Positions 5,086-62,220 of a stretch of DNA of 64,000 nucleotides are shown in pieces. A program made the translations under genes and the position numbers. The notes beneath the pieces were generated by a model. It worked only from the letters and a program-made list of their open reading frames with translations. It had not been told where the DNA came from and made no database searches. Source of the stretch: Patescibacteria group bacterium (GTDB lineage Bacteria; Patescibacteriota; Patescibacteriia; JACRDY01); assembly GCA_041650515.1 (NCBI GenBank), contig JBAZLA010000002.1, forward strand, positions 103,659-167,658, given 5' to 3'. How positions within the stretch are numbered: the stretch's first letter is position 1; every line of letters begins with the position of its first letter.

Positions 5086-6324
5086 ATGAGTGAAAAAATT
5101 AAAAAAATCATCTACGCCGCCCTCTTTATACTACTAACCCTACTTTTGGGCTATTTCCTCTATCTTTTCTTTTTTAAAACTTCCGCCCCTACTCAAACGC
5201 CAACCAACTTAAATGCCTTAAATTATGCTGGCGGCCTGCCTCAGGCTGGGACTAATACTAATCAACCAACCTACATTAATACCAACGGCCAACTAGTGCC
5301 GGCCACTAATGTCAACGCTTCGGCGGCTGGCGTCTCATCGGTTGCCCGTGGCGGTTTGACCCAGGTTACCAGCCTAACTACTACTGCTGCCCAGGGTTTC
5401 ACTTTGGCTAAAGATGGATCAGGCGCGATATACTACAACCGAACCGAAGGTAAATTTTATAAAATCGGCGCCGATGGCCAAACGACTTTATTGACCGACA
5501 AAATCTTTCATGATGTCGAAGATATCTATTGGTCGCCAGACACGGAAAAAGCCGTCTTAGAATATCCCGATGGCTCTAATATTGTCTACGATTTTAAAAG
5601 TAAAAAACAGTACACCTTACCGAAGCACTGGGAAGACTTTAGTTTTTCACCCAAAAGCGACCAGTTGGTTTTTAAAAGCATGGCTCTAGACGAAGAAAAC
5701 CGTTGGCTAGCTATTTCCAAGCCAGATGGCTCGGGTGTCCAAGCATTAGAAACCCTGGGCGACAACGCCGACAAAGTCTATATTGACTGGTCGCCCAATA
5801 AACAGATCATTGCCACCAACACCGAATCCATTGATTTTGATCGCCAGTATCTTTATTTTGTTGGTACCCAGCATGAAAATTTCCGTAGTACAATTATCGA
5901 AGGCTGGGACTACCGCAGCGAGTGGTCCACTAACGGCGACCGACTACTCTATAGTGTCTGGAACCAAGATAGCGACCTTAAGCCCAATATTTGGATTGTG
6001 AACGGCTACGGCGAAAATATCGGCACCAACCGAACTAATCTAAACTTACAAACCTGGGCCGATAAATGCACCTTTTCGGATAACAGCACCGTCTACTGCG
6101 CCGTTCCCCAATATCTACCTCGTGGCGCTGGTATCGAACCAGACATTGCTGCCAGCACGCCGGATGACTTTTATAAAATTGACCTCAAAACCAACACCAA
6201 AAGCCTGATTGCCGTACCCGATGGCACCTATACTGCCAAAGATTTGTCGGTTAGTAGCGATGGCAAATATCTCTACTTTATTGACGGCGTGACTGGCCGG
6301 TTAAATAAAATAGGATTAAAATAA
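5086..6324 (+). CDS. N-terminally membrane-anchored PD40/TolB-type WD40-like beta-propeller protein
   Basis: N-terminal TM helix then repeated PD40-like blades (IYWSPDTEKAVLEYPDGS, FSFSPKSDQLVF, IDWSPNKQIIA, SVSSDGKYLYFID); first gene of a co-directional operon with the four paralogs. Confidence 0.6.
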   Translation: MSEKIKKIIYAALFILLTLLLGYFLYLFFFKTSAPTQTPTNLNALNYAGGLPQAGTNTNQPTYINTNGQLVPATNVNASAAGVSSVARGGLTQVTSLTTTAAQGFTLAKDGSGAIYYNRTEGKFYKIGADGQTTLLTDKIFHDVEDIYWSPDTEKAVLEYPDGSNIVYDFKSKKQYTLPKHWEDFSFSPKSDQLVFKSMALDEENRWLAISKPDGSGVQALETLGDNADKVYIDWSPNKQIIATNTESIDFDRQYLYFVGTQHENFRSTIIEGWDYRSEWSTNGDRLLYSVWNQDSDLKPNIWIVNGYGENIGTNRTNLNLQTWADKCTFSDNSTVYCAVPQYLPRGAGIEPDIAASTPDDFYKIDLKTNTKSLIAVPDGTYTAKDLSVSSDGKYLYFIDGVTGRLNKIGLK

Positions 6325-6330
6325 AAACCT

Positions 6331-7449
6331 ATGAAAAATTTGCCGCCACCGCGCGTCAAAATAATCTATTTAGTTCTGGGCGCGATAATCTTTGGCATAA
6401 CATTATTAGCCGCTCCAGCGCTCGCCGAATGGACCGAAGCTTCTTGTGTCCAATCCGGCGGCTGGTGGTATTCGGATAATTGCTGGGCTAATAACCCGAT
6501 GATTAATCTGGAGATACCTTTTGGCGGACTGCCCGCCAGCGGCCGTATTGGCATTGCTCAATATATCGGCGCGATTTATAAATTTGGCGTCACAACAGCC
6601 AGCGTCTTGGCAATTGTCATGATTATTATCGGCGGATTTATTTGGCTAACTTCAGCTGGCAGTCAGACCCGAATTACCCAGGCTAAAGGCTATATCGGTG
6701 GCGCTCTGATTGGTCTAGTGCTCGCGCTTGGCAGTTACACTATTTTAAGATTAGTTAATCCAGCTTTAACTGAATTTCGTCCGCTGCGAGTTTTATATTT
6801 AGAAGAAGAAAAGGTTGATTCCGGCGCTAACTTTTGTCCAGCCTCAACCGAAGATATGCCCTTATTTGATCTCAATAAAAAGAAACAAAAAGTTGGTGAT
6901 AAAGGCGAATGCGGGCAAGATTATAAAGTTGGCGATGCCGAAGCAACCGGCACCTGTCCGGGCTCTCACTGCAGCGGTGGCGGCATCTGCCTAATGGACG
7001 CCTCTAAAGATCCCAAAACCCTGCCTGACGGCCGTAAACAAGCAGTCATGGCTTGCCAATACCCAGAAGATGCTTGCAATAAAGTAGTTGATGAGAAAGT
7101 TGGTAATTTAAGCTTACCAACAAGTCAAGGTGCTTGTGATCAAATTAATAACCAAATAGCTTGGAGTGTTAGTAACCCTACCGGTACCTGCCATTGGGTC
7201 GATGAACCATATTCTGATGATGCTTGTTACTGGTGTCCTGAGGATAAAGAAAAGGTCGTAGCAGACGATTTAAAATCAGGAAAAACAAAATGTGAAGATT
7301 TGAGTGTTGGTCGATTCACTGGGACAAAAGAAGAAGATGCTTGCAATATAACAGTTTGTTCAAAGAGTTGCAGTGTTTATGTTGGCAGACCATTTTGGGA
7401 AGGAGTGACCGGCACTCTAGCGAGTGAAGCCCGCTCACTATGTAAATAG
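6331..7449 (+). CDS. Secreted Cys-rich protein with conserved two-helix hydrophobic hairpin (VirB2/TrbC-like topology), paralog 1; Cys-rich C-terminal domain of unknown function
   Basis: Signal peptide/TM (IIYLVLGAIIFGITLLAAPALA), Cys/Trp-rich N-domain, conserved block IAQYIGAIYKFGVTTASVLAIVMIIIGGFIWLTSAGSQTRITQAKGYIGGALIGLVLALGSYTILRLVNPALTEFRPL shared with the next three genes. Confidence 0.7.
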   Translation: MKNLPPPRVKIIYLVLGAIIFGITLLAAPALAEWTEASCVQSGGWWYSDNCWANNPMINLEIPFGGLPASGRIGIAQYIGAIYKFGVTTASVLAIVMIIIGGFIWLTSAGSQTRITQAKGYIGGALIGLVLALGSYTILRLVNPALTEFRPLRVLYLEEEKVDSGANFCPASTEDMPLFDLNKKKQKVGDKGECGQDYKVGDAEATGTCPGSHCSGGGICLMDASKDPKTLPDGRKQAVMACQYPEDACNKVVDEKVGNLSLPTSQGACDQINNQIAWSVSNPTGTCHWVDEPYSDDACYWCPEDKEKVVADDLKSGKTKCEDLSVGRFTGTKEEDACNITVCSKSCSVYVGRPFWEGVTGTLASEARSLCK

Positions 7450-7451
7450 AT

Positions 7452-8447
7452 ATGCTATCTAGAAATAAAAAGAAAAAATACACCGCTATTATCCTTGTTA
7501 TTTTTATTGGCTTATTTCTAGCCGCTAACCTTGTTTTAGCAACAGACGAAACTCCGCCCAAATGGACTAAGGACGGCTGTGACCAGGCTGGCGGCTGGTG
7601 GTTTGAAAGTAACTGTTGGGCTAATAACCCCACCATCAACCTGGCTGTACCTTTTGGTGGTCTAAAACCAAATACAACTATTGGCATCGCCCAATATATT
7701 GGTGCAATCTACCGTTTTGGCATCAGCGCGGCCAGTGTCTTGGCGATTGTGATGATTATTATCGGCGGGTTTATCTGGCTAACTTCAGCTGGTAATCCCA
7801 CGCGCGTCACCCAAGCTAAAGGCTACATCGGCGGCGCTCTAGTAGGTCTGGTACTAGCCCTCAGCAGTTATTCCATTCTCAGAACTATTAACCCAGCCCT
7901 AACTGAATTTAGGCCATTACACATTCTCTATGTCGGCGAAGCACCATTGGCGATTGCCACCTGCTGTGAAAAAGACGGCCAAATGAATATTATTTATGAG
8001 GCAAACCAAGAATGCCCCGAGGGTCAAAAAAAAGTCACTTGCCCGTGCAAAGAATTAGCCGCTAACGAATGCCAAGCTGGCATGGTAAAATCAACTAATT
8101 CTGATAAAATTAAAACTGGCTGTTACTCCACTGGCACTTGGATGAATATCGGCGGTGTTTATACTGCTGGCGGACTCCGAACTTGCGCCGAGATAGAATA
8201 CGGTGAAGATTGTTCCAACTTTGGCGGATTATTTGGCGGCCAGGCCTGCCGTAACTACGGCAAAACTTTTACTCACAAAGGTGGCACGGGCATCGTGCCG
8301 GACTATCCTGATCTCTTTAAAAATATCTGCACTTCTGATCCTTGCCAGATCGGCCCCTGTAAGTTTGTACAAACATCCAAAGATAAGGATGGCGTTCTTC
8401 AAAAACTAAACTGGTGTATTGGCGCCAATGAACAACCGCCAGAATAG
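7452..8447 (+). CDS. Paralog 2 of the hairpin family; Cys-rich C-terminal domain
   Basis: Start 3 nt after paralog 1 stop; near-identical N-domain motif GGWWFESNCWANNPTINL and conserved hairpin block IAQYIGAIYRFGISAASVLAIVMIIIGGFIWLTSAGNPTRVTQAKGYIGGALVGL...NPALTEFRPL; divergent Cys-rich C-terminus. Confidence 0.7.
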   Translation: MLSRNKKKKYTAIILVIFIGLFLAANLVLATDETPPKWTKDGCDQAGGWWFESNCWANNPTINLAVPFGGLKPNTTIGIAQYIGAIYRFGISAASVLAIVMIIIGGFIWLTSAGNPTRVTQAKGYIGGALVGLVLALSSYSILRTINPALTEFRPLHILYVGEAPLAIATCCEKDGQMNIIYEANQECPEGQKKVTCPCKELAANECQAGMVKSTNSDKIKTGCYSTGTWMNIGGVYTAGGLRTCAEIEYGEDCSNFGGLFGGQACRNYGKTFTHKGGTGIVPDYPDLFKNICTSDPCQIGPCKFVQTSKDKDGVLQKLNWCIGANEQPPE

Positions 8448-8476
8448 TCACCGGTAGCTACCAACTTAAAATAAAT

Positions 8477-9688
8477 ATGTTTATCAAAAAACAAAAAATA
8501 AAACTAAGCCTAGTCACTTTTATCGCTCTGGCTAGTATTTTTGTTTATTTAGCGCCAGCTCTAGCTCAAAGCGGCGAGAACTGTTGTGTTTGTACTGATT
8601 TTGGTGGTAAAGACGTAAAATACGCTCCGGGCGTACCTGATGCTAACGGTAAATGCGACCAACATATCACCTACTCTACTGAGTGCTACGGTGAGGGCTG
8701 CGCCACTACCCCGGATAAAGTTTGCTCAGTCAAAGGTGGCAGCTGCAAAAGCTGGCAAGCGGCCATTGATAAAGTCTCGGGTGAAGAAGCAGCCAAAAAA
8801 GAACTATTACCAGCGACTCCCCCAGTTTTGCAAGTTAATATCCCCGGCCTCACTTTTACCGGCGAAATCAAAGCCACCATGGAAGAAATGGGTCGACGTT
8901 ATTATAATATTCCCTGGCTAGCTGAATATATCGGCGCGGTTTACCGTTTTGGTGTTAGCGTGGCTAGCGTCCTAGCAATCGTTATGATAATTATTGGTGG
9001 CTTTATCTGGATGACCTCGGCTGGTAACCAGGCCCGGATCACCCAAGCTAAGGGTTATATTAGCGGCGCGCTGATTGGCCTCTGTATTGCTTTGGGTAGC
9101 TACGGCGTTTTAAAAGTGGTTAACCCGGCCTTGGTCAATCTCCGGCCACTTAAGATACTGATGATTGAGTTTGAAGACCTAACTGGCGTCTCCACCAATG
9201 ATGATACGGCAGCTGCTAACCTTAGCTTTTCTCCTTCTACGCCGACCGGCGATACTCAACTCCTAAAGTTAAATAATTATAAGGGTCGACCAATTATATT
9301 AGATAAATCAATCGCCAACACAGTTCAACAGATTTTACAACAATTGATTGATGGCGGTTTTCAGGTAAAAGATGCCTCTAGCCATCGCCCCAATCAAGCT
9401 GGTTTTTCTTGGCATAAGTCCGGACTAGCTATTGATATTAATCCAGCTGAAAATCCATGCCCATGTTGCTATACTGGCACAGACTATAAACAATGCTCCT
9501 CTGATAAGTGGAAACCGGGAGTGGGTGGTGCCGTGACTAAAGAAGTAGTGGATGCCTTTAAAGCGCAAGGTTTCTGCTGGGGGGGAGATTGGTGTCATTT
9601 TAAGGATTACATGCATTTTTCGAAACCATCAAATAGCGCCAGCAAAGAGTGCGGAAACGGCGGAAATGGTTGTCCTTATCAGTGGTAA
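8477..9688 (+). CDS. Paralog 3 of the hairpin family with C-terminal peptidase M15 (VanY/phage L-Ala-D-Glu peptidase-like) peptidoglycan hydrolase domain
   Basis: Signal peptide, CCVC Cys-rich N-domain, conserved hairpin block (EYIGAVYRFGVSVASVLAIVMIIIGGFIWMTSAGNQARITQAKGYISGAL), then SSHRPNQAGFSWHKSGLAIDIN ... GFCWGGDWCHFKDYMHF matching Zn-binding S-x-H...D and WGGxW...DxxHF motifs of M15 peptidases. Confidence 0.75.
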   Translation: MFIKKQKIKLSLVTFIALASIFVYLAPALAQSGENCCVCTDFGGKDVKYAPGVPDANGKCDQHITYSTECYGEGCATTPDKVCSVKGGSCKSWQAAIDKVSGEEAAKKELLPATPPVLQVNIPGLTFTGEIKATMEEMGRRYYNIPWLAEYIGAVYRFGVSVASVLAIVMIIIGGFIWMTSAGNQARITQAKGYISGALIGLCIALGSYGVLKVVNPALVNLRPLKILMIEFEDLTGVSTNDDTAAANLSFSPSTPTGDTQLLKLNNYKGRPIILDKSIANTVQQILQQLIDGGFQVKDASSHRPNQAGFSWHKSGLAIDINPAENPCPCCYTGTDYKQCSSDKWKPGVGGAVTKEVVDAFKAQGFCWGGDWCHFKDYMHFSKPSNSASKECGNGGNGCPYQW

Positions 9689-9698
9689 AAATATATCT

Positions 9699-10994
9699 AT
9701 GTTGAATAAATATTTAAAAATTGCGTTACTAACTATACTCTTTTGTTTAGCTCTAAGTCTCCAACCGGTTTTCGCCGGCGAGAGTTGCTGTGTTTGCAAC
9801 CCACTTAAAAATAAAGACAACCAAACTGCTAGTGGCGCGCCAACCGAGGGTAAATGCGACCAATATATTATTTATAGCACTCCAACTTGCCATGGCCAAT
9901 ATTGTCCACCTCAAGGACAACCAACTAATGAATGCCGAATTTTGGAATCTAGCTGCGCTAATGTTAGTAAAGCCATTTTAGAAAAAATCAACGGCCAAAA
10001 TAGCAAACAACCACTGCCTATTGAGGCACCCAATCTCCAAATCGCTATCCCCGGGCTAACTCTTACCCAACCAATCAGTGCTAAGGAAATGCCTAATACC
10101 GGTCGTTTATTCTATTCTATCCCCTGGATTGGCGAGTATATTGGGGCGATTTACCGCTTTGGGGTTAGCGCCGCCAGTATTTTAGCTATAGTGATGATTA
10201 TTATTGGCGGCTTTATCTGGCTCACTTCAGCCGGCAACCCGACCAAGATCACCCAAGCTAAGAGCTATATCAGCGGCGCCTTGCTCGGCTTAATGCTCGC
10301 TTTGGGTAGCTACACTATTCTAAGATTAGTTAATCCCTCGCTAGTCAATCTCAGCTCAATCAAAATTTTGATGATCGAATATGAACAAATGGAACAAGGT
10401 GGCCACGAATCGGATTATTTTCAAGTTAACTCTGGCGCCAAAGGTGCAGTTAGCGCCTATGATAGTGCTCCTTGTCCAACTAATGCTGAGGCGACTAACG
10501 GCTTTCAAGCCTTTATCACTGCTTACTATTCTCCGCCGCCCGGCGAAAAAGGTTTTTATAATAGTTTTGAATGTAACGTGGCGATGCAGTGCTCCTGCAC
10601 CCGCGATTCCAGTAAAACTTGCAGTCATAAATACGGCCCAGGTTGTCTGTTTAAAAAACCAGTAGAACAATTGATCCCTAATATCGACTACTGTACCAAA
10701 ACTGCCAGCGGTTCACCACCAACCTCCTGGGTCACTGTCGCCGCTGATGTTAAAAAGGGCACTGGCAAAGGCTGGGCGGATCATAAAGAATGTTGGAGTT
10801 TTGGCGACACTTTTGAAATTTATGACAGCGGCGGTAATAAAGTCGGCAATACGTGGGTGATTGGCGACCAAGGCTCAGCCATCAAAAGCCGCCACTTTGA
10901 TCTTTATGTCGGTACAGATTTATCCAAGGCTAGGAGCCTGGGTGGCGTTTATACAATCAAATTTACCAAGTGTACCAAATGTCCACTGCGTTAA
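9699..10994 (+). CDS. Paralog 4 of the hairpin family with C-terminal 3D-domain (MltA/YuiC-like) cell-wall hydrolase domain
   Basis: ORF track start 9552 overlaps paralog 3. ATG 9699 gives canonical signal peptide MLNKYLKIALLTILFCLALSLQPVFAGE; CCVC Cys-rich N-domain; conserved hairpin block; C-terminus AFITAYYSPP...CTKTASGSPPTSWVTVAADVKKG...WVIGDQGSAIKSRHFDLYVGTD matches TAY...ITASG...AVDP...DTGGAIKG.RIDLF pattern of 3D domains. Confidence 0.75.
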   Translation: MLNKYLKIALLTILFCLALSLQPVFAGESCCVCNPLKNKDNQTASGAPTEGKCDQYIIYSTPTCHGQYCPPQGQPTNECRILESSCANVSKAILEKINGQNSKQPLPIEAPNLQIAIPGLTLTQPISAKEMPNTGRLFYSIPWIGEYIGAIYRFGVSAASILAIVMIIIGGFIWLTSAGNPTKITQAKSYISGALLGLMLALGSYTILRLVNPSLVNLSSIKILMIEYEQMEQGGHESDYFQVNSGAKGAVSAYDSAPCPTNAEATNGFQAFITAYYSPPPGEKGFYNSFECNVAMQCSCTRDSSKTCSHKYGPGCLFKKPVEQLIPNIDYCTKTASGSPPTSWVTVAADVKKGTGKGWADHKECWSFGDTFEIYDSGGNKVGNTWVIGDQGSAIKSRHFDLYVGTDLSKARSLGGVYTIKFTKCTKCPLR

Positions 10995-11588
10995 ATGACT
11001 AACAAAATTCTCCAAACTTCTTTTTATAACCGACCAACACGTCAAGTTGCCCAGGATCTCCTGGGTAAAATTATTATCCGTCAAATCGGCCGCAAAAAAT
11101 ATTACGGCCTTATTACCGAAACTGAAGCTTATTGCGGGCCTCAGGACCAGGCCTCCCACGCTAGCAAAGGCCGCACCCCACGCACCGAGGTAATGTTTGG
11201 CCCAGCCGGCCACACCTATATCTATCTGATTTACGGTCTGTATCATTGTTTCAATATTGTCACCGAAAAAAAAGACTACCCAGCCGCGGTCCTGATCCGT
11301 GGCGCCCTCCCCTTACCAAAGGAATGGTTGGGTGGGGTTACTCTGCCCCTTTCCAAGAGGGAGATGGCCGAAGGCCAGAGGGGGTTAGCTAGTGGCCCAG
11401 GCAAACTCTGCCGTTATTTTAAAATTGATAAAACACTAAATAACCTCGATATTACTAAACCCAATAAACTTTGGCTGGTCGACAGCGGGCTAAAACCCCA
11501 AAGAATCATTCGCCGGCCTCGGGTCGGCGTTGATTACGCTGGTAAATACAAAGACAAAAAATGGCGGTTTATTACCCGATTTTCTTGA
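10995..11588 (+). CDS. mpg: DNA-3-methyladenine glycosylase (Mpg/AAG family)
   Basis: ATG overlaps TAA of upstream gene (taaATG); motifs GLITETEAYCGP, MFGPAGHTYIYLIYG, AVLIRGA, GPGKLC typical of Mpg family. Confidence 0.85.
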   Translation: MTNKILQTSFYNRPTRQVAQDLLGKIIIRQIGRKKYYGLITETEAYCGPQDQASHASKGRTPRTEVMFGPAGHTYIYLIYGLYHCFNIVTEKKDYPAAVLIRGALPLPKEWLGGVTLPLSKREMAEGQRGLASGPGKLCRYFKIDKTLNNLDITKPNKLWLVDSGLKPQRIIRRPRVGVDYAGKYKDKKWRFITRFS

Positions 11589-12168
11589 TACTATTTCTAT
11601 CTTCATCCCAATTTAAAGGATTATTGATAATATATTCGCTGATTTTTTGGTATTCTATTTGATTACGAATAATGTGTTCGTAATAATTTCGTTGCCATAA
11701 TCGTTGATCAAACGGCGACCAATTATTTTGTTTAACGTTTTTAATATATTCGTTGGTGGACATGGTTTTGAACCATTGCACCACCCGGGGTATTAATTGT
11801 TGGGAACGACGTAGGGGCAGACCCGGCGGTATTGGCAGACCTCTGTGTCTGCCCTGTTGGTTCGGGCAGACACAGAGGTCTGCCCCTACGTCGTCGATAA
11901 TTTCCACAATTCCATGAATATGATTTGGCATAACCACAAACACACCCAATCGAATGGTCAAAAATTTGTTCGGTAGTTTAGACCACCATTTTTGTGCCAT
12001 CCGACCCGCCGGATTTAAAATCATTCCCCCGTTTTCCACCCGACCGAATAAATAAACCATATTTTGGCTACAGATGGTAATGAAATATTGCCCCATTCCC
12101 GAATAATCATAATCGGGCAAGCGGATAGAACGACGGTGATGGTAATCGGGGTTATACATAGATAACAA
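11572..12168 (-). mobile_element. REP-associated tyrosine transposase (RAYT / IS200-like Y1 HuH transposase) gene with intragenic REP-like insertion
   Basis: HuH motif MPNHIHGIVEI and catalytic Tyr motif EYIINNP; about 30 extra residues (VGADLCVCPNQQGRHRGLPIPPGLPLRRS) between the two motifs are encoded by a GC-rich compound palindrome. Confidence 0.75.
11806..11894. repeat. GC-rich REP-like compound palindrome (BIME-like) inside the RAYT ORF
   Basis: Outer 18-bp perfect inverted arms acgacgtaggggcagacc / ggtctgcccctacgtcgt; inner units ggcagacctctgtgtctgccc and gggcagacacagaggtctgcccc are reverse complements of each other; GTAG/CTAC tetranucleotides flank the hairpins as in REP sequences. 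Confidence 0.8.
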
Positions 12169-12221
12169 AAGATAAGGCCTATCCTGACTCTATCATGGTG
12201 GACATTAAAGAAATCTAAAAT

Positions 12222-12245
12222 AAAAAAAGGGACGACGATCGTCCC
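12222..12245 (-). terminator. Rho-independent terminator candidate downstream of GC-rich island gene
   Basis: On minus strand GGGACGA-TCG-TCGTCCC (7-bp GC stem) followed by TTTTTTTATTTTAG; additional GC hairpins at 12275-12288 and 12300-12315. Confidence 0.5.
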
Positions 12246-12315
12246 CGACTAAGCTCGGACTAACCCACAAGGGTGGCTGGTCCCAGCCCAGTTAATTGTG
12301 CTGCTTGTAGGCAGC

Positions 12316-12681
12316 TTATTTTTTGGCTTTGGGCTTCTGGCGCGACTTGGGCCGACACCGGCTATTCAGCCAGTCGTCGAACGATCCGACGCTGGCAAAA
12401 TCCGCCTCGTTCGGCTTCTTGCCGTTGACGGCCATCAGATGACGCGCGGCCACCTGCATCACCCCGGTGCCTGACGGATGCCGGAAACGGGCTACCACAC
12501 CCGCTCCCTGCGAGTCGTGACCAAGGCCAATAATCTCCAGACGCTGCCCCAGGGCCGGCGCCAGATGGGCGATAGAGCCAATCGTGGCTCCGCCGCCAGC
12601 GCACGGGCTATTCCGGTTGATCTTGGCCACCACACCAGGATCAACCGATTCGAAAGTCACAGTAATGAATTCTCGACGCAT
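12316..12681 (-). CDS. Small basic protein of unknown function, GC-rich island gene B (paralog of 13047..13448)
   Basis: ORF track gives 12316..12765 but AGGAGG lies 8 nt upstream of ATG at 12681 (MRREFITVTF...); C-terminal basic tail KSRQKPKAKK; region is about 60% GC versus about 40% elsewhere. Confidence 0.55.
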   Translation of the reverse strand: MRREFITVTFESVDPGVVAKINRNSPCAGGGATIGSIAHLAPALGQRLEIIGLGHDSQGAGVVARFRHPSGTGVMQVAARHLMAVNGKKPNEADFASVGSFDDWLNSRCRPKSRQKPKAKK

Positions 12682-13046
12682 AGGGGCCCCTCCTACCAAA
12701 GATTGAGGCAATTGTTTAAAAAGAACCCACACCCCAGCCCGCCTCATTAGGCTAAGGTGATTCACTGATTATTTATTTAATTACCATATTTTCAGTCTTC
12801 AGTCAATAACAATATTCTAAATAAAACAAAATGGGGCAGACGCGTAGTCTTACCCCGGCGCAAGATCGTGGGCAGGCGGGCCTTTGAATCAGCGCAAATT
12901 TCCTCTTTTGGGTTTCCTTCCCCCCTTGTGTGACCGCGCCGCATTGCGGTCGAAGAATTCAACCCCCTTGAGGAAGACGATATCGCTTGGTCAGAAGAGA
13001 ACACAAGGTAGCTCATCTGGCGAAGCGACAAATGCAAAAGGACGTC

Positions 13047-13448
13047 TTACGACCGGCGACGAACTTTGCCGCTGCCGCCGGACTGCTTCTTCTTGCCGCT
13101 GCCGCCGTTGCAGTGGAGCAGAAGAAATTCGCCGAGAAACGTCTCGGCATCCGTCAGATGCTGCTCGGTCGGTTTGATCTTATCGGCGCTCATGACATGC
13201 TGCGCCATGACCTGCAGATCACCCGGATTGAGCCGGCCTTGCAGAGCCTCAGGCAGGGCGAATCGGATGATCGGTCTTCGCAACTTGGGGTGATCAGCGA
13301 TTTCCACCACCGTAAGCTCATGACCGATCAACTGACCGAGTCGTTCGTGGTGACGAGCCTTACTCGGTCGGCCATTCAACACGCATTCACTGTCGCCATT
13401 GAGACAAACAGTGAGCCCCTTCGGAACCTCAACAAACTGAAACTCCAT
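13047..13448 (-). CDS. Small basic protein of unknown function, GC-rich island gene A
   Basis: GAGGT 7 nt upstream of ATG; C-terminal Gly/Lys/Arg tail; segment LQVMAQHVMSADKIKPTEQHLTDAETF aligns with VMQVAARHLMAVNGKKPNEADFASVGSF of gene B; preferred over overlapping plus-strand ORF 12987..13451, which lacks an RBS. Confidence 0.55.
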   Translation of the reverse strand: MEFQFVEVPKGLTVCLNGDSECVLNGRPSKARHHERLGQLIGHELTVVEIADHPKLRRPIIRFALPEALQGRLNPGDLQVMAQHVMSADKIKPTEQHLTDAETFLGEFLLLHCNGGSGKKKQSGGSGKVRRRS

Positions 13449-13569
13449 TAGCGTTACCTCTTCTTTCAGGGCATAGGAGAATGAGCTTTTAGTTGGTCTT
13501 CCGCCTTAGACCTCTGTATAGCCCTAAACGCCAAGGATTCGCCCCGTTGATCCTGACGTAATTATTCGC

Positions 13570-13599
13570 ATTATAAACAAAAAGAATAGTTCTTGTCAA
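13570..13599 (-). promoter_or_regulatory. Perfect consensus sigma70 promoter TTGACA-N18-TATAAT reading into the GC-rich island genes
   Basis: Minus strand: TTGACA (13599..13594), 18-nt spacer, TATAAT (13575..13570), about 115 nt upstream of gene A start. Confidence 0.6.
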
Positions 13600-13613
13600 C
13601 TATCTTCTTAATT

Positions 13614-13715
13614 GTCATTGCGAGGCCCGACGTAAAGTCGGGCCGAAGCAATCTCATGATATATCCACCAGATTGCTTCGTCGCTCCGCCGGCTGGCGGA
13701 GCTCCTCGCAATGAC
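13614..13715. repeat. 102-bp nested compound palindrome (closing stem plus three internal hairpins, all perfect Watson-Crick)
   Basis: Outer gtcattgcgag/ctcgcaatgac (11 bp); hairpin 1 gcccgac-gtaaa-gtcgggc; hairpin 2 cgaagcaatc-17 nt-gattgcttcg; hairpin 3 gctccgcc-ggct-ggcggagc; linkers 0-2 nt. Confidence 0.8.
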
Positions 13716-13757
13716 GTGGTCAATAAATTTGCTTTATTGTTTTCTTGCTTTATTGAC

Positions 13758-15857
13758 CTATTCCCAATGCACTCGCTCGGCCATTTCCCTTACCTTATCT
13801 TTGAGTAAATAATATTTACTTAATTCTGGATCACTGTGGATAACTTTAGCTGCCCACTCACGCGCTTGCTTAATGGCTGCTAAATCAAACAAACTAGCTA
13901 GCCGTAAATTAGGCAAACCACTCTGCATGGTGCCTAGGGTCTCACCTGGCCCGCGAAATTCTAAATCTTTCTCGGCTAGTGCAAAACCATCCTGGCTAGC
14001 CACTAACGCCGCTAGACGCCTAGCGGTTATCTCACTAGCCGATTCGGTAAATAAAAAACAATAGGATTGGTGCTCTGATCGACCCACCCGACCGCGGAAT
14101 TGGTGCAACTGCGCTAAACCAAAACGCTCAGCCCCTTCGATCATCATCACCGTGGCATTAGGCACATCCATGCCCACTTCCACTACGGCCGTGGCGACCA
14201 AAACTTTAATTTTATTAACCAAAAAATCTTGTCGTACTCGCTCTTTCTCCGCCGATTTTAACCGACCATGCAAAATGCCAATCGCATGTTCTGGAAAAAT
14301 TTCTTTGTCTAGTTTAATAAATTCTTCTTCCGCCGACTTAACGCCTAATTTGTCTGACGGATCAATCAATGGACAGATCACAAAAGCCTGTCGACCAGCT
14401 TCAATCTGCTGCCTAATAAATTGATAAGCCGGCCGATACTTATTAGATTCAATAATTTTGGTGATAATTTTTTTACGACCCAGCGGCAATTCATCAATAA
14501 TTGATAAGTCTAAATCGCCATAGATAGTCAAAGCTAACGACCGCGGGATTGGGGTGGCGGTCATTGATAAAAAATGAGGCAATAAACCGCTATTACCCGC
14601 TCGTTCTTTAAGCGCCTGGCGCTGTTTAACACCAAAACGATGTTGTTCGTCAACGATCGCCAGAGCTAAGTTTTTAAATTCAATCTTTTCTTGGATCAAA
14701 GCGTGAGTGCCAATAATAACGTCAATTTTACCGGCTTTAAGCATCTTAATCACCTCTGAGTGCTTTTTATTTTCTGCTTCACCTAGCGAGCCAAAAAACA
14801 ACTTAACGCTACCCCGAGTTAATAAACCAATGTTAATATCCGCTCCGGACAAGAGTTTACTCACAGTTTGAAAATGCTGATTGGCTAGTATCTCGGTTGG
14901 GCAGAGCAAGGCGGCCTGATATTTGTTACTAACAACATTAAGCATCGCTAAAGTAGCCACCACGGTTTTACCCGAGCCAACATCACCTTCGAGCAGCCGA
15001 TTCATTGGCTGATTTTTTTGTAGATCCTTCAGAATCTCCCAAGCCGCTTTACGTTGAGCCGTCGTCAGTTTAAATGGTAAACTAGCGACAAAATTTTTAA
15101 TCACTCCCTCTTTAAATTCTAAGCTACTGGAGTGGCTTTTTTCTAGTTCGCGACGCGCGAGTTGGTTTTGCAGCTGAATAATAAAAAATTCGTCAAACTT
15201 AAGCCGACGCCGCGCCTGCTGCAGCCTGGCTTGGCTATCGGGAAAATGGATCTGCCTGATAGCCGCTATCAGGCCGGGAAATTTTAAAGCTAAAATAATC
15301 TCCGCCGGCAAATAATCCTTAATACTTTTTAATTGGGTCAAAACGATCTTAATCAGATAACGAATTTGTTTAGAAGTTATCCCCTTGGTCAAGGGATAAA
15401 CCGGTACCAGCCGAGCGGTATGCGTCGGCCCACTAGCGGCTTTAACCTTGGTAATCTTTTCATAGCTTGGCGAATGAAATAAAATTCCCTTATCAAAATC
15501 AACCTTACCAGCAATAAAAACCTCATCGTTCGGCTGTAAAATTTTACTCACAAAGGGTTGGCCGAACCAAATAACTTTTACTGAACCAGTAATATCAGTG
15601 ATAATCGCTTCGGTAACTATCCGTCGCGCTCGCCAAGAACGGAAATTTTTAATCAATTCTACTCTGCCACGAACGGTCGCCGTAACCCCCGGCGCCAAAT
15701 CCCGAATATCAACTACCTGACTAAAATCATCATAGCGAAACGGATAATAAAAAATGAGATCGGCTATCGTCTCAATTTCTAATTTTTTTAATTTTGGCGC
15801 TAATCTAGCGGCAATTTTATTAAGATAACTAACCGGCGTTTTTAAATTAATCAACAT
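13758..15857 (-). CDS. recG: ATP-dependent DNA helicase RecG
   Basis: 699 aa; N-terminal wedge/OB region, helicase motif I DVGSGKTVVA, DEQHRFGV (motif II), C-terminal helicase domain motifs; canonical RecG architecture. Confidence 0.9.
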   Translation of the reverse strand: MLINLKTPVSYLNKIAARLAPKLKKLEIETIADLIFYYPFRYDDFSQVVDIRDLAPGVTATVRGRVELIKNFRSWRARRIVTEAIITDITGSVKVIWFGQPFVSKILQPNDEVFIAGKVDFDKGILFHSPSYEKITKVKAASGPTHTARLVPVYPLTKGITSKQIRYLIKIVLTQLKSIKDYLPAEIILALKFPGLIAAIRQIHFPDSQARLQQARRRLKFDEFFIIQLQNQLARRELEKSHSSSLEFKEGVIKNFVASLPFKLTTAQRKAAWEILKDLQKNQPMNRLLEGDVGSGKTVVATLAMLNVVSNKYQAALLCPTEILANQHFQTVSKLLSGADINIGLLTRGSVKLFFGSLGEAENKKHSEVIKMLKAGKIDVIIGTHALIQEKIEFKNLALAIVDEQHRFGVKQRQALKERAGNSGLLPHFLSMTATPIPRSLALTIYGDLDLSIIDELPLGRKKIITKIIESNKYRPAYQFIRQQIEAGRQAFVICPLIDPSDKLGVKSAEEEFIKLDKEIFPEHAIGILHGRLKSAEKERVRQDFLVNKIKVLVATAVVEVGMDVPNATVMMIEGAERFGLAQLHQFRGRVGRSEHQSYCFLFTESASEITARRLAALVASQDGFALAEKDLEFRGPGETLGTMQSGLPNLRLASLFDLAAIKQAREWAAKVIHSDPELSKYYLLKDKVREMAERVHWE

Positions 15858-15865
15858 ATCTTATC

Positions 15866-15937
15866 CGCCCTCAGTAGGAATCGAACCTACATTACGAGAT
15901 CCGCAATCTCGCGTCCTATCCATTGAACGATGGGGGC
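15866..15937 (-). tRNA. tRNA-Arg (anticodon GCG as parsed)
   Basis: Minus-strand sequence GCCCCCATCGTTCAATGGATAGGACGCGAGATTGCGGATCTCGTAATGTAGGTTCGATTCCTACTGAGGGCG folds as cloverleaf: U8, A14, GG18-19, anticodon stem CGAGA/TCTCG, loop TTGCGGA (U33, G37), T-loop TTCGATT; 3' end abuts recG start. Confidence 0.7.
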
Positions 15938-17066: not shown

Positions 17067-17720
17067 TCAACCATGGGCCAAAACTAATCCTTCAACTCTT
17101 CTAACTCCGGCCTGTTTTAAGACTTTAGCAGCCTGATTAAGCGTTTGGCCAGTGGTCACTACATCATCCACTAAAATTATATTTTCAATCTTCCCTAGAC
17201 TCGTTTTATTAACAGTAAACGCATCCAAAATATTTACCTCTCGCTCGGCTTTATTCAGACTCATCTGTGGCCGAGTGTTTTTAGTTTTTAATAAAATATC
17301 AGTACGAACATCTAGATTAATAGCCTCGCTGGCTTGGCGTAAAATCAGCTCAACTTGGTTAAAATCCCGCCAACGATGACGAAAACGATGTAACGGAATC
17401 GGCACAAAAACCCACTGACTCGACCAACGACTGGCTGGTTCGACCAAAATCTTACCCAAAGGATAAGCCAAGTCACTGATAAACTGATATTTTAACAAAT
17501 GAATCGCTTGTCTAATGACCGGGTTACCATAATCGGCAGCAATGACAATTTGATCAAGATAATCGCCACTCAGGCTTGCTCGACCAGACCAACGTTTAAT
17601 TCTGGCTAAACACCGCGGACAAAGCCAATCCTGCCCCTCGGTTTGGCAATCTAAACAGTAGATAGGAAACAATAAATCCTGAAAAAATCGCCAATATTTT
17701 TTTAACTTTGGTTGATCCAT
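17067..17720 (-). CDS. comFC: ComF family competence protein (ComFC-like phosphoribosyltransferase)
   Basis: N-terminal zinc ribbon CLDC...CPRC, C-terminal PRTase-type motif ILVDDVVTTGQTL. Confidence 0.8.
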   Translation of the reverse strand: MDQPKLKKYWRFFQDLLFPIYCLDCQTEGQDWLCPRCLARIKRWSGRASLSGDYLDQIVIAADYGNPVIRQAIHLLKYQFISDLAYPLGKILVEPASRWSSQWVFVPIPLHRFRHRWRDFNQVELILRQASEAINLDVRTDILLKTKNTRPQMSLNKAEREVNILDAFTVNKTSLGKIENIILVDDVVTTGQTLNQAAKVLKQAGVRRVEGLVLAHG

Positions 17721-18413: not shown

Positions 18414-20291
18414 TTAATTTGGTGTTGCGGTTGCGCCGATAGATTGGTCTTCTCCAGTAGCCACCCGCTCATCAAACTCCTTTTTGGCAGCCTCAATCTC
18501 TAACAGCTGCCTTGGATCAGAAGTAATTAATTGATCCTCGGTATATGAGGCAACCACCTTAATCGCCGCATGACGGTTACCAGCAAAAAAGATACCCTCG
18601 CCGACGCCACATTCCAAAAGTAAATACTTTTCGCCCTCGGTAAGCAGAAAAGTTTTTTGAATATGATCAATGGATGATGGCGACTGTTTCATTAATATCT
18701 GCAAAGCTGAATTATTAACAATCGCTTGGCCATAAGGTGACAACAAAAAGTCATTAACATCCTGCGTAATAGTAGTCACCCCTAAATAATATTTACGACA
18801 ACGTTTTACCAGGGCAAAAATAAACCGCGCCGAATCTTCATTCTGCATCAACCACCAGCCTTCGTCAATAACCAAAATTCTTTTCTTGCGCTCAGAACGG
18901 ACGACATTCCAAATATAATTAACTAGATTATAAATAGCTAAAGGCCGCAGCTCGTCCTCTAGATCACGGACAGAAAAACAAACTAACTGATTATTAGTAT
19001 CAACATTAGTCGGACTATTAAACAAACCAGAAAAGGTACCCTCGGTAAACTTCTTAAACCGAGTGGCCATATCCGATCCGCCTTCCATACCCTCTAAAAT
19101 ATCAACCAAGTCTTGAATCAATGGCGGCTCGATGTCTTTAAGATTAGAATCAGCTGTAATGTCTTTTTTGGCATAGGTTTCCAATAGCGCCCGATCTAAA
19201 AGAGCGTCTTCTTTAGCGCTAATTTTGCCTAAAATTAGACGACACAGGCCTTTAATGGTAATAACGGCGCTGCGGATAATATCCTCCGTTTTAAAGTCTT
19301 TCTCCACTGGTCGCGGTAGGTCAAAAGGATTAACCTTGCTCTCAGAAGCGAGCGAAATATTAATATAAGTTCCGCCCACTGCGTCAGAGAGGTGTTTATA
19401 CTCTTTTTCTGGGTCAATAACAATAATATCCACCCCCAACATCAGACTCCTAAGTATCTCCAGTTTGATCGCGTAGCTCTTGCCAGCACCCGAGGTGGCA
19501 AAAACCACCATATTAGCATTCTGCAAACTAAATCGGTCGAACAAAATCAAACTGTTATTATGCCGGTTGATACCGTACATAATGCCATTGTCCGAGCTCA
19601 ACTCAAAAGAAATAAAAGGAAAGGACGAGGCACAGGGGGAGGTATTCATGTTGAAGGTAATTGCTAGTTCATCCAGACCCATTGGCAAAGTTGAATTGAA
19701 TCCTTGTTCGGCCTGATACAGAACTTGGCGAGAATAAACTAAACGCGAACCAAAAATATCTTCCATATCTTCGGTCAGCTCATCCAGCTCTTTCAAACTA
19801 TCGGCATAAATAGTGACATATAAAGCATATTGAAAAAAATGCTCAACACCTTGGGTTAAATCGTCACGCAGCTTCTCGATATCACGCAAAGCGGTTTCTT
19901 TGATCGGGTCACGAGGAGCACCCTTGTCGCGATCAGCAAAAATTTCTGCTTCTAGGTTACCCACTCTTTTTTTGAGCTGCTTGAGAATAAGCGCTGCCCT
20001 GACCGGATAAAAGAAGATCGAAACATCTAAAGGGTGGTTAAAGTTGATAATCGGCGAAAACCAACCAATAGTGATATAACGGGGATAGCTAATCACAAAC
20101 ATCGTCCGGACATATTTGGTGCCCAGAATAATATAGCTCGGCTTTACCTCTAAAGCAGCGGGAGCGATTAGATCAATAATCGAAATTTCGCCTTCGCGAT
20201 AACGACGCTCTTCTTCAATCACCTCCTTATTCAAAACGACCTGCGCCTGCTGTTCATTTTCTGGTTGTTTCTTTTTAAAAAATATCGACAT
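18414..20291 (-). CDS. virB4: VirB4/TrbE/PrgJ-family conjugative T4SS ATPase, C-terminal ATPase part
   Basis: Walker A VVFATSGAGKSYAI, Walker B ILVIDEGWWLMQ, typical VirB4 C-terminal domain; ATG in frame 3 nt after the TAA of the upstream ORF. Confidence 0.85.
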   Translation of the reverse strand: MSIFFKKKQPENEQQAQVVLNKEVIEEERRYREGEISIIDLIAPAALEVKPSYIILGTKYVRTMFVISYPRYITIGWFSPIINFNHPLDVSIFFYPVRAALILKQLKKRVGNLEAEIFADRDKGAPRDPIKETALRDIEKLRDDLTQGVEHFFQYALYVTIYADSLKELDELTEDMEDIFGSRLVYSRQVLYQAEQGFNSTLPMGLDELAITFNMNTSPCASSFPFISFELSSDNGIMYGINRHNNSLILFDRFSLQNANMVVFATSGAGKSYAIKLEILRSLMLGVDIIVIDPEKEYKHLSDAVGGTYINISLASESKVNPFDLPRPVEKDFKTEDIIRSAVITIKGLCRLILGKISAKEDALLDRALLETYAKKDITADSNLKDIEPPLIQDLVDILEGMEGGSDMATRFKKFTEGTFSGLFNSPTNVDTNNQLVCFSVRDLEDELRPLAIYNLVNYIWNVVRSERKKRILVIDEGWWLMQNEDSARFIFALVKRCRKYYLGVTTITQDVNDFLLSPYGQAIVNNSALQILMKQSPSSIDHIQKTFLLTEGEKYLLLECGVGEGIFFAGNRHAAIKVVASYTEDQLITSDPRQLLEIEAAKKEFDERVATGEDQSIGATATPN

Positions 20292-20294
20292 AGC

Positions 20295-20993
20295 TTATTC
20301 TTCAACTTTAATTTTATCAACCTCTATCATTTTTTCCGACTCCGATAACTGCGGGTTATAAGAATTATAATACAACTCAATCAAACTCTGGGTGTCGAGC
20401 GGCGTGGCTTGCAGGCCCATACTATTCAAACCGCCAATCACGTGACTAACCCGCTGATATAAATCTCGACGTCTCTGATTAAACCTTTCTTCGCCGAGTT
20501 TGATCAAACTCGTGGGAGTAAACAGCTCCAATAGCCTTGACCAAAAACCGCGTTGCTTGTCCGATAAGGGATTATAAGGCACAACAATATAAAACTTCTT
20601 AGTCATAATATCGCCAATTTTGACCAGTTCGGCCACAAAATTACGGTAGTCTTTAATCTGCATTTTTAGCAGTTCATTAATCTGTTCTTTCTCAAATTTT
20701 TTTAACCTATCTAAATAATCATCAATATCAAACCGACGCGACTGGATAACAATCTGAATAGGAAAATCAATTGAATTTAAAAAGCTCATATAAGCGGTAA
20801 CAATCGCTTGTTGCTCATCAGACGACTTAAGCGCAAAATTAATGCTAGCGACCATAACAACCGCTCGCAAAGTTCCATCTTTAAGCACCACGCAGTCATT
20901 ACGAACCTCGGCAATCGGTACGTACTTCTTGGTTGACGGAGTAGATTTGTTTGTTGCTCGCTTACTCTTCATAGATTGATTTATAAATACCAC
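20295..20993 (-). CDS. VirB4 N-terminal domain (CagE/TrbE/VirB N-domain) encoded as separate ORF
   Basis: PIAEVRNDCVVLKDGTLRAVVMVASINFALKSSDEQQAI matches N-terminal region of VirB4 proteins; 232 + 625 aa equals normal VirB4 length; same frame as the ATPase ORF, separated only by TAA-GCT. Confidence 0.65.
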   Translation of the reverse strand: MVFINQSMKSKRATNKSTPSTKKYVPIAEVRNDCVVLKDGTLRAVVMVASINFALKSSDEQQAIVTAYMSFLNSIDFPIQIVIQSRRFDIDDYLDRLKKFEKEQINELLKMQIKDYRNFVAELVKIGDIMTKKFYIVVPYNPLSDKQRGFWSRLLELFTPTSLIKLGEERFNQRRRDLYQRVSHVIGGLNSMGLQATPLDTQSLIELYYNSYNPQLSESEKMIEVDKIKVEE

Positions 20994-21399
20994 CAGTATT
21001 AACTACCAACGATAGCTCCTCCAGGTGTGAACTCGACATTAATTTTTTGGGCGCAATTTTTCTGACCGAACTAACCGCCACTGGACGCTGTAAAATTTCT
21101 CTAATCTCTTGATCGGTTAAACTTTTATCCCAAACTTTAAGCTTCGGTTTTTTAAATGTCTCGATAACATTAAGTAAAAAATAATGAAACGGTCGCCCAT
21201 TAATCTTAGCAAAAGCAATAGTGCCAAAGATAGCAAAAATCAACACCGTCGACACAACAAAAGTCCAAAAATCAAACAACTTATAACAAACAAAAATCAG
21301 CATCAAGGCAACAATACTAATAATAAACTGACGGACGGTAATCGGACCAAACACCCGCGGCTCAACCTCGATAAATTGGGGAACAAGAAACTGTTCCAT
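20962..21399 (-). CDS. PrgI/VirB3-like small membrane protein
   Basis: FGPITVRQFIISIVALMLIF followed by a second TM helix, matching the GLTxRQ + two-TM signature of PrgI-family VirB3 analogues; overlaps VirB4-N start. Confidence 0.6.
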   Translation of the reverse strand: MEQFLVPQFIEVEPRVFGPITVRQFIISIVALMLIFVCYKLFDFWTFVVSTVLIFAIFGTIAFAKINGRPFHYFLLNVIETFKKPKLKVWDKSLTDQEIREILQRPVAVSSVRKIAPKKLMSSSHLEELSLVVNTGGIYKSIYEE

Positions 21400-59616: not shown

Positions 59617-60444
59617 TTAAGCACCAAGAAGCTGGGCTTTATCAAAAGCCGCTTTGATGCCTTCTTTGAGGCAAGCGGCCAAGCCGCGACGGTCAAAGAC
59701 ATAAAGGGCCTCAACCGTTGTTCCGCCGGGCGAGGTGACTTCATCACGAAGCTGGGCCAAATGTTTTTCCGGCGCCAATTCAGCTAGTGCCAAAGCGCCT
59801 TTGAAAGTTTGGATCACCAACTCGCGCACCCGGCTCCAGGGAAAGCCGAGCATGACTGCCCCATCGATGACTGATTCAACGATTTGGCAGACATAGGCTG
59901 GTCCGGAACCGAAGACGGCAGTGGCAACATCAATCAGCTTTTCCTTCTGGACTTCGCACTCTTTGCCCCACAAAGCAAAGATTTGGCGCGCCAATTTAAG
60001 CTGTTCTTGGGTCACCTCGGCTGAACGCAACCAAACCGTCACGCCCTGACCGATTCGCGCTGGCGTATTAGGCATTGAACGGATGATCCGTTGATGCTCA
60101 AAACCAGCTTGCAGCGACTGCAATTTAATACCGGCCGCGATAGAGATCACTAAAGTTTCCGCCGAAATCCGGCCCCGCAGTTGTGGGTAGAGATCAGGCA
60201 CGTTTTGCGGCTTAACAGCTACGATGATCACTTGAACCGTTGCCAGATACTCGCGGCTGCCCACCACCACCTCGACTTTGGGCAAAAAGATATTGGCTAG
60301 CGCCTGCTGCTGTTTGCGGTTTTTAACCGCCAAAATCACCCGACCAGCCCAGCCGTTCTGGGACAAAATTTGGGTAATCGCTTTGCCCATATTGCCGCCG
60401 CCGATGATCAGAACATTAATCGCTGACTGTTTTTTGGAAGCCAT
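59617..60444 (-). CDS. proC: Pyrroline-5-carboxylate reductase
   Basis: INVLIIGGGNMGKAI NADP-binding motif, full-length P5CR fold motifs (VKPQ, GSGPAY); strong SD AAGGAG; GC content visibly higher (about 52%) than neighbours. Confidence 0.85.
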   Translation of the reverse strand: MASKKQSAINVLIIGGGNMGKAITQILSQNGWAGRVILAVKNRKQQQALANIFLPKVEVVVGSREYLATVQVIIVAVKPQNVPDLYPQLRGRISAETLVISIAAGIKLQSLQAGFEHQRIIRSMPNTPARIGQGVTVWLRSAEVTQEQLKLARQIFALWGKECEVQKEKLIDVATAVFGSGPAYVCQIVESVIDGAVMLGFPWSRVRELVIQTFKGALALAELAPEKHLAQLRDEVTSPGGTTVEALYVFDRRGLAACLKEGIKAAFDKAQLLGA

Positions 60445-62128: not shown

Positions 62129-62220
62129 ATCTCCAGCACCCCACCCTGTCCCTCCCCTTAGCAGGGGAGAATGCGTCTCCTCCCCTGCTAAGGGGAGGGA
62201 CAGGGTGGGGTGCTGGAGAT
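62129..62220. repeat. 92-bp perfect GC-rich palindrome (41-bp arms, 10-nt spacer)
   Basis: atctccagcaccccaccctgtccctccccttagcaggggag / aatgcgtctc / ctcccctgctaaggggagggacagggtggggtgctggagat; arms are exact reverse complements; 14 nt upstream of DUF559 start. Confidence 0.9.

Follow-up and report, generated by a model that had tools for sequence, protein, structure and literature searches.

A GC-rich pair of paralogous orphan genes between recG and a RAYT-like gene in a Patescibacteria genome

Two small genes and their expression signals

The 64,000-bp stretch analysed here (the window) comes from a 243.5-kb contig (JBAZLA010000002.1) of a Patescibacteria metagenome-assembled genome (GCA_041650515.1). 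At 12180–13720 it carries a GC-rich island with two minus-strand genes for small proteins, gene A (13047–13448, 133 aa) and gene B (12316–12681, 121 aa). The island is bounded by the recG stop codon (13758, minus strand) on one side and by a RAYT-like gene (11572–12159, minus strand) on the other. NCBI annotates gene B (WC480_02080, "hypothetical protein"), whereas gene A is absent from the annotation. An earlier note, made from the sequence alone, had described the products as basic paralogs of an unrecognised family in a horizontally acquired segment, possibly mobilised with the RAYT. As detailed below, the paralogy, the basic tails and the isolation of the family were borne out and horizontal acquisition is likely, whereas mobilisation with the RAYT found no support.

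In BLASTP, the two proteins aligned along almost their entire length with 23% identity (E = 2e-7). The Smith-Waterman score was 77, compared with 27 ± 4.6 for shuffled sequences (0 of 2000 reached 77; z ~11), and 73 when the tails were removed. The other 35 reading-frame pairs of the A and B segments scored 39 or less. In a protein-guided alignment, nucleotide identity at codon positions 1, 2 and 3 was 0.44, 0.52 and 0.34, respectively, against approximately 0.25–0.29 expected from composition. Similarity confined to one frame, together with an identity order of 2 > 1 > 3, points to protein-coding constraint on the minus strand. Judged by these sequence patterns, A and B are real genes and protein-level paralogs that diverged under coding constraint. 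An open reading frame (ORF) on the opposite strand (12987–13451, plus, 154 aa) fully overlaps gene A; it lacks frame-specific similarity to B and is disposed of by the same constraint pattern.

Both proteins end in a tail rich in Lys and Arg. Protein A comprises a core of ~113 aa with an isoelectric point (pI) of 6.1 and the tail GGSGKKKQSGGSGKVRRRS, and protein B a core of ~108 aa (pI 9.2) and the tail RCRPKSRQKPKAKK. Owing to these tails, the pI of the whole protein rises above that of the core, to 9.2 for A and 10.4 for B. Each product would be built of an α/β domain of ~110 residues followed by a short disordered Lys/Arg-rich tail. The two share 29 identical positions, including Cys22, His34, His84 and Cys113 (A numbering), which could form a metal site.

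Gene A has a predicted sigma-70 promoter, TTGACA-N18-TATAAT (13599→13570, minus strand), that matches the consensus at 12 of 12 positions, just as the earlier note had read it. It is one of two 12/12 promoters in the 64 kb; the other, TTGACA-N17-TATAAT, lies at 37786–37757 (minus). If transcription starts ~7 nt past the −10 element, gene A has a 5′ leader of ~114 nt (13449–13562, minus), the fold of which is not significant (z = −0.34). The leader contains the Shine-Dalgarno (SD) sequence AAGAGGT (13456–13462, minus), read from the sequence 7 nt from the ATG. Downstream of gene A lies a GC-rich 3′ untranslated region (12817–13046, minus; 54.6% GC), whose structure is not significant overall (z = −1.7). 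It ends in a predicted intrinsic terminator, recognised from the sequence and the minimum free energy (MFE) structure as a hairpin at 12833–12856 followed by ATTTTGTTTTATTT. Gene A would form a complete unit, in which its own consensus promoter is combined with a strong SD and an intrinsic terminator.

The two genes are 365 bp apart, with this terminator between them. The AT-rich spacer upstream of gene B (12730–12806, minus) holds only weak promoter-like sites, namely TTGACT at 12806–12801 and CTGAAA-N16-AATAAT at 12795–12768 (9/12; both minus). A terminator-like hairpin in the B leader (12759–12730, minus) is followed by TGGGTTCTTT. Gene B could have a weak promoter of its own, or it could depend on read-through from A. 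Its SD, AGGAGG (12689–12694, minus), stands 7 nt before the ATG, so that both genes have the strong SDs claimed previously. The 3′ end of gene B (12218–12315, minus) also conforms to the earlier description, with two GC hairpins (12300–12315 and ~12255–12293) upstream of a canonical intrinsic terminator (stem 12246–12228 plus a T-run); the 131-nt 3′ region folds with z = −4.1. Unit B would thus comprise a strong SD and a terminator.

These signals also bear on the possibility that the ORFs arose by accident in GC-rich DNA, with a structured non-coding RNA as the real product or no product at all. GC-rich DNA contains few stop codons, the antisense ORF overlaps gene A, only B is annotated by NCBI, and relatives carry GC-rich transcribed units with unrelated ORFs at the same site. 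However, the A–B similarity is specific to one frame and shows the codon-position order given above, and each gene has its SD 7 nt from the start codon. An Rfam search of 11000–14500 gave chance-level matches only, with two sub-threshold matches in 12180–13720 (E ≤ 10), and neither the leader nor the inter-gene RNA is significantly structured (z = −0.3 and −1.7). We therefore consider accidental ORFs highly unlikely.

Foreign composition and the gap between recG and MPG

In a GC scan of the 64 kb in 400-bp windows (mean 0.429, sd 0.045), GC exceeded 55% only at 12201–12401 and 12851–13051, with a peak of 0.615 at 12251. The island had been described as about 60% GC. This applies to gene B (60.7%) and roughly to gene A (57.0%), but not to the interval 12180–13720 as a whole, which averages 53.2% because AT-rich regulatory patches lie inside it (12700–12840, 34.8% GC; 13449–13610, 41.4% GC). 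The similarity of these patches to the rest of the window is no higher than chance. The suggestion that native AT-rich sequence at 12770–12835 gives the island a mosaic structure has a simpler alternative, in which the patch consists of the T-tract of the gene A terminator and the AT-rich region upstream of B.

The 36 ORFs of the window with 150 aa or more served as the host reference. GC content at third codon positions (GC3) was 0.66 in A and 0.68 in B, compared with 0.40 ± 0.046 in the host ORFs (z = 5.5 and 6.1), and the synonymous codon preferences of A and B were opposite to those of the host (AAG over AAA, CAG over CAA, GCC over GCT). An SD-like 4-mer was present upstream of 2 of the 36 host ORFs, whereas both A and B have strong SDs at optimal spacing, which agrees with the earlier remark that SDs are rare elsewhere in the window. 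Translation initiation in this host is evidently mostly SD-independent. The two host ORFs that bear an SD are recG (GAGG) and an ORF at 59617–60444 (AGGAG).

Synteny provided a further line of evidence. Here and below, loci from other genomes are identified by L numbers. In the closest relative by RecG (L002, GCA_041653535.1; 65% identity), the stop codons of the convergent genes recG and MPG are 1 bp apart, and neither a RAYT nor an island is present. In the genome studied here, ~2.2 kb including the RAYT separates the two genes, and neither genome has a truncated MPG protein. The L002 gap is an empty site. Composition, translation signals and synteny are three independent lines, and they identify the island as compositionally foreign DNA.

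A chimeric assembly was a concern raised at the outset. The sharp GC transitions at both edges and the lack of an island homologue in related genomes would fit a chimera made in assembly, or contaminating DNA attached to the Patescibacteria contig. However, in a separate Logan assembly of SRR8542065, a contig of 10,687 bp agrees with window positions 5233–15919 at 100% identity and follows the same path through both GC transitions. To produce a chimera, two false joins would have to fall within 1.5 kb and together restore the expected recG–MPG synteny, and related genomes carry other insertions at exactly the same site. Judged from assemblies, this explanation is extremely improbable.

The explanation we favour, with moderate confidence, is that the island is a horizontally acquired, moron-like segment carrying two anciently diverged paralogous orphan genes, located in the recG–MPG gap of a type IV secretion system (T4SS)/comF/recG locus of the class ABY1. 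A and B are only ~25% identical, yet both are foreign in composition; the duplication would therefore predate the transfer, and the pair would have arrived together. The donor would have had ~57–62% GC and used SD sequences, as might a bacterium or one of its plasmids or phages.

Several points weigh against this explanation. The searches described below found neither a donor nor a homologue, and the argument for transfer therefore draws on three things: the composition, the use of SDs and the empty site. At 65% RecG identity, the nearest relative is too distant to fix the timing. Expression of A and B is predicted from sequence signals, and the promoter was scored on the E. coli consensus, from which the host's own promoters may differ. 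Moreover, small genes in the same gap of other genomes also have somewhat raised GC3 (0.43 vs. 0.24 in L147; 0.36 vs. 0.23 in L149), and part of the bias in A and B could stem from selection acting on strongly expressed genes instead of a foreign source. This last account is weakened because it leaves the 55% GC of the untranslated region unexplained.

The gap downstream of recG is occupied in several relatives. In L004, it holds a 99-aa ORF with a GC3 of 0.81 (0.36 in recG) and a TTGACA-N17-TATATT promoter; this ORF lies in an islet (2280–2920) of 62–67% GC within a 43% GC contig, with ~230 nt of GC-rich non-coding sequence. The L004 islet is an independent GC-rich islet at the same site. In L003, a small ORF is accompanied by ~350 nt of non-coding DNA and by a RAYT from another subfamily. 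The gaps of L147 (4297–4545) and L149 (3461–3850) each hold an orphan ORF, 82 aa long in the former and 129 aa in the latter, and L148 (7161–7613) encodes a zf-DksA/TraR protein. By eye, the genes in L006 (8433–8819), L008 (8480–8713) and L010 (8183–8596) also appear to be of the zf-DksA/TraR type. In these six ABY1 relatives (L006, L008, L010 and L147–L149), the recG–MPG (or recG–radA) gap contains one small gene with a near-consensus promoter, a ~100-nt leader and an AAGGAGG SD, and near-consensus promoters and AGGAGG-type SDs are shared by the gap occupants of relatives generally. GC3 of the slot gene exceeds that of the neighbouring recG in L147, L148 and L149.

Short motifs noted by eye ("CG[AV]SR" and "MQ..ARHL") had raised the possibility that A and B are homologous to the slot ORFs of L003, L004, L147, L148 and L149. 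This was rejected, with E > 1 in BLASTP and tblastn and an hhalign probability of at most 1.4%. No relation of the slot occupants to A and B or to one another was detected, and the islands share no DNA similarity.

The gap lies within a T4SS-like cluster. Pfam searches identified a VirB4/TraG-like ATPase (18414–20291), a PrgI-like protein (20962–21399), a TrbL/VirB6-like protein (25289–28285), four T4SS_pilin-like proteins at 6331–10994, two of them with cell-wall hydrolase domains, and a ComF-like phosphoribosyltransferase (17067–17720). T4SS loci of the class ABY1 "commonly include" comF, recG and radA (PMC12102498), and the arrangement here matches this described T4SS–comF–recG–radA neighbourhood. 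Two giant minus-strand ORFs also lie near the T4SS-like genes, at 28316–36625 (2769 aa) and 41706–51269 (3187 aa).

A broader proposal is that the recG–MPG gap is a dedicated slot in which small-protein genes of foreign origin, perhaps from the bacterium that hosts the episymbiont, are repeatedly captured and are expressed from strong promoters, with SDs of a kind missing from the symbiont's own genes. A and B would then be a new tail-anchored nucleic-acid-binding or T4SS-delivered family acting in the episymbiont–host interaction, and their 57–62% GC and SD use would be a fingerprint of the host. We regard this proposal as unlikely. Nevertheless, the recurring use of a gap in a T4SS locus by SD-bearing, often foreign, strongly expressed small genes is a more interesting lead than the acquisition itself, which is real yet fairly ordinary and adds one more orphan islet. 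If the slot is functional, it could show how episymbionts regulate or load their T4SS, and the foreign composition could point to a donor, possibly to a host organism in the same sample.

The RAYT-like neighbour and palindromic elements

The gene adjoining the island encodes a RAYT-like Y1 (HUH) transposase (Pfam Y1_Tnp PF01797, E = 5.4e-5, 23.7 bits with a cutoff of 23); its start at ATG 12159 was taken from the Logan gene call. Its HIHGI motif (HUH: HIH) and WQRNYYEH motif (Tyr: YYEH) align with those of 11 homologues. Just past the HUH motif, the gene contains an in-frame nested GC-rich palindrome (11806–11894) with 18-nt perfect outer arms and 26-nt inner arms. In the 11 homologues, this region is hypervariable in length, with tandem peptide repeats in some (L076, L088), which suggests a hot spot for frame-preserving insertions.

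This neighbour raises the possibility that the island is RAYT cargo, IS200/IS605-like or REPtron-like, moved as single-stranded DNA with a hairpin element as the transposon end. The transposase gene adjoins the island on the same strand, and the opposite edge of the segment carries a large hairpin element. L002 lacks both the RAYT and the island, and in L003 a small-ORF cassette likewise precedes a RAYT downstream of recG, although that RAYT is of a different subfamily. However, the RAYT gene is host-like at 41% GC, whereas the island has 57–61%; this mismatch points to different histories. The 3′ end of the RAYT gene overlaps MPG, and no GC hairpin is found at that end to partner the one at the recG side, which is itself single-copy in the window. 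We also fetched 80 metagenomic loci with RAYT homologues (38–51% identity to this RAYT). Six-frame hmmsearch found no relative of A or B at any of them, so the pair was not seen to co-occur with RAYTs elsewhere, a check that the earlier note had called for. The 48 loci with usable flanks showed no systematic GC-rich neighbour, and RAYT GC tracked that of the host (30–65%), which fits long-resident, domesticated genes. Mobilisation of the island with the RAYT is thus highly improbable.

The hairpin element is a 102-nt palindrome (13614–13715) located between the recG stop codon and the −35 element of gene A, directly upstream of the latter. It is predicted to fold into a four-way junction, with three hairpins inside a closing stem of 12 bp (GTCATTGCGAGG/CCTCGCAATGAC). 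The MFE is −70.9 kcal/mol (z = −9.8) for the minus-strand RNA and −66.5 kcal/mol (z = −9.7) for that of the plus strand. Other matches to the stem in the window were at chance level. The outer and inner stems recur in 13 IMG/VR contigs (L133–L145), in at most three copies each, which are intergenic and clustered. Across these copies, the outer stem GTCATTGCGAGG/CCTCGCAATGAC is fixed, the inner hairpin CGAAGCAATC...GATTGCTTCG is conserved and the side hairpins vary. These recurrences identify the palindrome, on sequence grounds, as a member of a widespread family of intergenic palindromic elements; Rfam gave no match to it, and a literature search by sequence string returned unrelated primer matches only. 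Most likely the element was inserted independently and delimits the variable segment on the recG side. No repeats or target-site duplications above chance were found at the island edges. Elsewhere in the window, a GC-rich perfect inverted repeat at 62129–62220, with 41-nt arms (ATCTCCAGCACCCCACCCTGTCCCTCCCCTTAGCAGGGGAG...) and a 10-nt loop, may be another palindromic mobile element.

Possible roles and comparison with known systems

We searched for relatives of A and B in sequence and structure databases. Pfam, PHROGs, NCBIfam and PADLOC gave no match at E ≤ 1, and a word-indexed search of 5.8 billion protein clusters returned self-matches only. A profile hidden Markov model of the A and B cores, run against 1.84 billion representatives, retrieved A and B themselves and four long tandem-repeat proteins. 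On reading their sequences, we rejected these four as false matches, their scores being inflated by the addition of many weak repeats. The PDB sequence search gave only E > 1, and fold searches gave no match; neither homology nor structure assigned a function to A or B. No relatives were found in IMG/VR with back-translated motifs, in phage (INPHARED) and plasmid collections with blastn, or among 131 fetched loci containing RAYT or recG homologues with six-frame hmmsearch. The pair is thus without a detectable relative among ~15 billion predicted proteins. It nevertheless represents a statistically solid protein family, with coding constraint and full expression signals, and is a good target for structural and functional work.

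Because each product has a small globular domain, a Lys/Arg-rich tail and possible Cys/His ligands, and because the two paralogs could pair and have strong expression signals, we tentatively suggest that A and B are abundant small nucleic-acid-binding proteins. They might form homodimers or heterodimers, with the tails contacting the phosphate backbone. This role is read from form, and we hold it as a guess that may well prove wrong. Two analyses gave it no direct support. The AlphaFold models have low confidence, with predicted local distance difference test (pLDDT) values of 58.7 and 49.7, and an AbrB/MazE reading was raised by eye and from secondary-structure order and rejected at an hhalign probability of 0.13%. 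A PilZ domain, sought in A and B by a fold match together with the RxxxR and [DN]xSxxG motifs, was not found.

The AbrB/MazE resemblance belongs to a further alternative, in which A and B are a toxin–antitoxin-like pair or AbrB/MazE-type regulators. Two small adjacent genes in foreign DNA would suit it. So would the β-β-α-β-β order in residues 5–64 of the AlphaFold model of A and the "NSPxA" and "RLGxxxGxxLxV" motifs that by eye recall MazE/AbrB. However, the hhalign comparison cited above was made against an AbrB/Abh/SpoVT/MazE profile whose seeds had been verified on PDB entries 1z0r, 2fy9, 2ro5, 1ub4 and 1mvf, and PF04014 had no match in A or B, nor did PADLOC, Pfam or NCBIfam as a whole. 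Type II toxin–antitoxin pairs are non-homologous and encoded in a tight operon, whereas A and B are paralogs whose genes are well separated by a terminator. This alternative is very improbable. The earlier note had listed toxin/antitoxin-like and phage-derived roles among its candidates; neither gained support from PHROGs, PADLOC, IMG/VR, the phage collections or hhalign, and none of the functions it suggested could be demonstrated.

The main alternative is that A and B are effector substrates of the adjacent T4SS-like machine, with the basic tails serving as translocation signals and the gap as a variable effector slot. Arg/Lys-rich C-terminal signals typify VirB/VirD4 substrates. A and B resemble such substrates in their Lys/Arg-rich C-terminal 15–20 residues, the last 20 residues having a net charge of ~+7 in A and ~+6 in B, and in the position of their genes beside T4SS genes. 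In relatives the slot holds unrelated orphan genes that, by their signals, are strongly expressed, and such turnover is typical of host-interaction genes. The island also lies inside the T4SS-like cluster (PMC12102498). Against this, the charge rule comes from Gram-negative (diderm) systems, whereas the T4SS here is of the monoderm conjugation type (PMC12102498). No coupling protein of the VirD4/TcpA type was seen among the window genes scanned, and the cassette proteins of L003, L004, L147 and L149 lack a basic tail. In more distant relatives the slot holds a DksA/TraR-type regulator instead of an effector. An effector role is accordingly unlikely, although it deserves more weight than the other alternatives to acquisition of an orphan gene pair.

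These zf-DksA/TraR regulators share with A and B the slot, a size of 80–150 aa and a strong promoter and SD. However, A and B lack the CxxC...CxxC zinc finger, have no match to PF01258 and reach an hhalign probability of only 0.1% against the L148 protein.

IS200/IS605 elements and REPtrons offer a second comparison. The island resembles them in that a Y1/HUH gene adjoins it and one of its edges bears a stable hairpin element. It differs in having no second end, no repeated REPs, a mismatch in composition between transposase and cargo, and no cargo at the 80 RAYT-homologue loci. Of the four defining features, a Y1 transposase is present, whereas hairpins on both sides, a hairpin repeated within the 64-kb window and travelling cargo are all lacking; with three of four features failing, the island falls outside this kind.

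A third comparison is with phage morons, whose architecture the island shares. Hendrix and colleagues reportedly described morons as autonomous extra transcription units in prophages. Like a moron, the island lies between resident genes, deviates in composition from its flanks (GC3 z = 5.5 and 6.1 vs. the 36 host ORFs) and includes a unit with its own promoter and a factor-independent terminator. This last feature is complete for A, while B has a terminator and promoter-like sites of 9/12 only. Unlike a moron, it has no phage genes nearby and no match in PHROGs, IMG/VR or INPHARED, and it comprises two tandem paralogous units rather than one. Its location is not a prophage but a chromosomal T4SS/competence/recombination locus, with recG, MPG, T4SS-like and ComF-like genes as neighbours.

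The best classification of the island is as an orphan islet acquired horizontally. Like other such genomic islets, it is atypical in GC content and codon usage, its site is empty in a relative, and homologues are lacking. It stands apart from them in being unusually compact, in carrying unusually complete "generic bacterial" signals (a 12/12 promoter and AGGAGG) within an SD-poor host, and in occupying a gap that has been struck repeatedly in related lineages.

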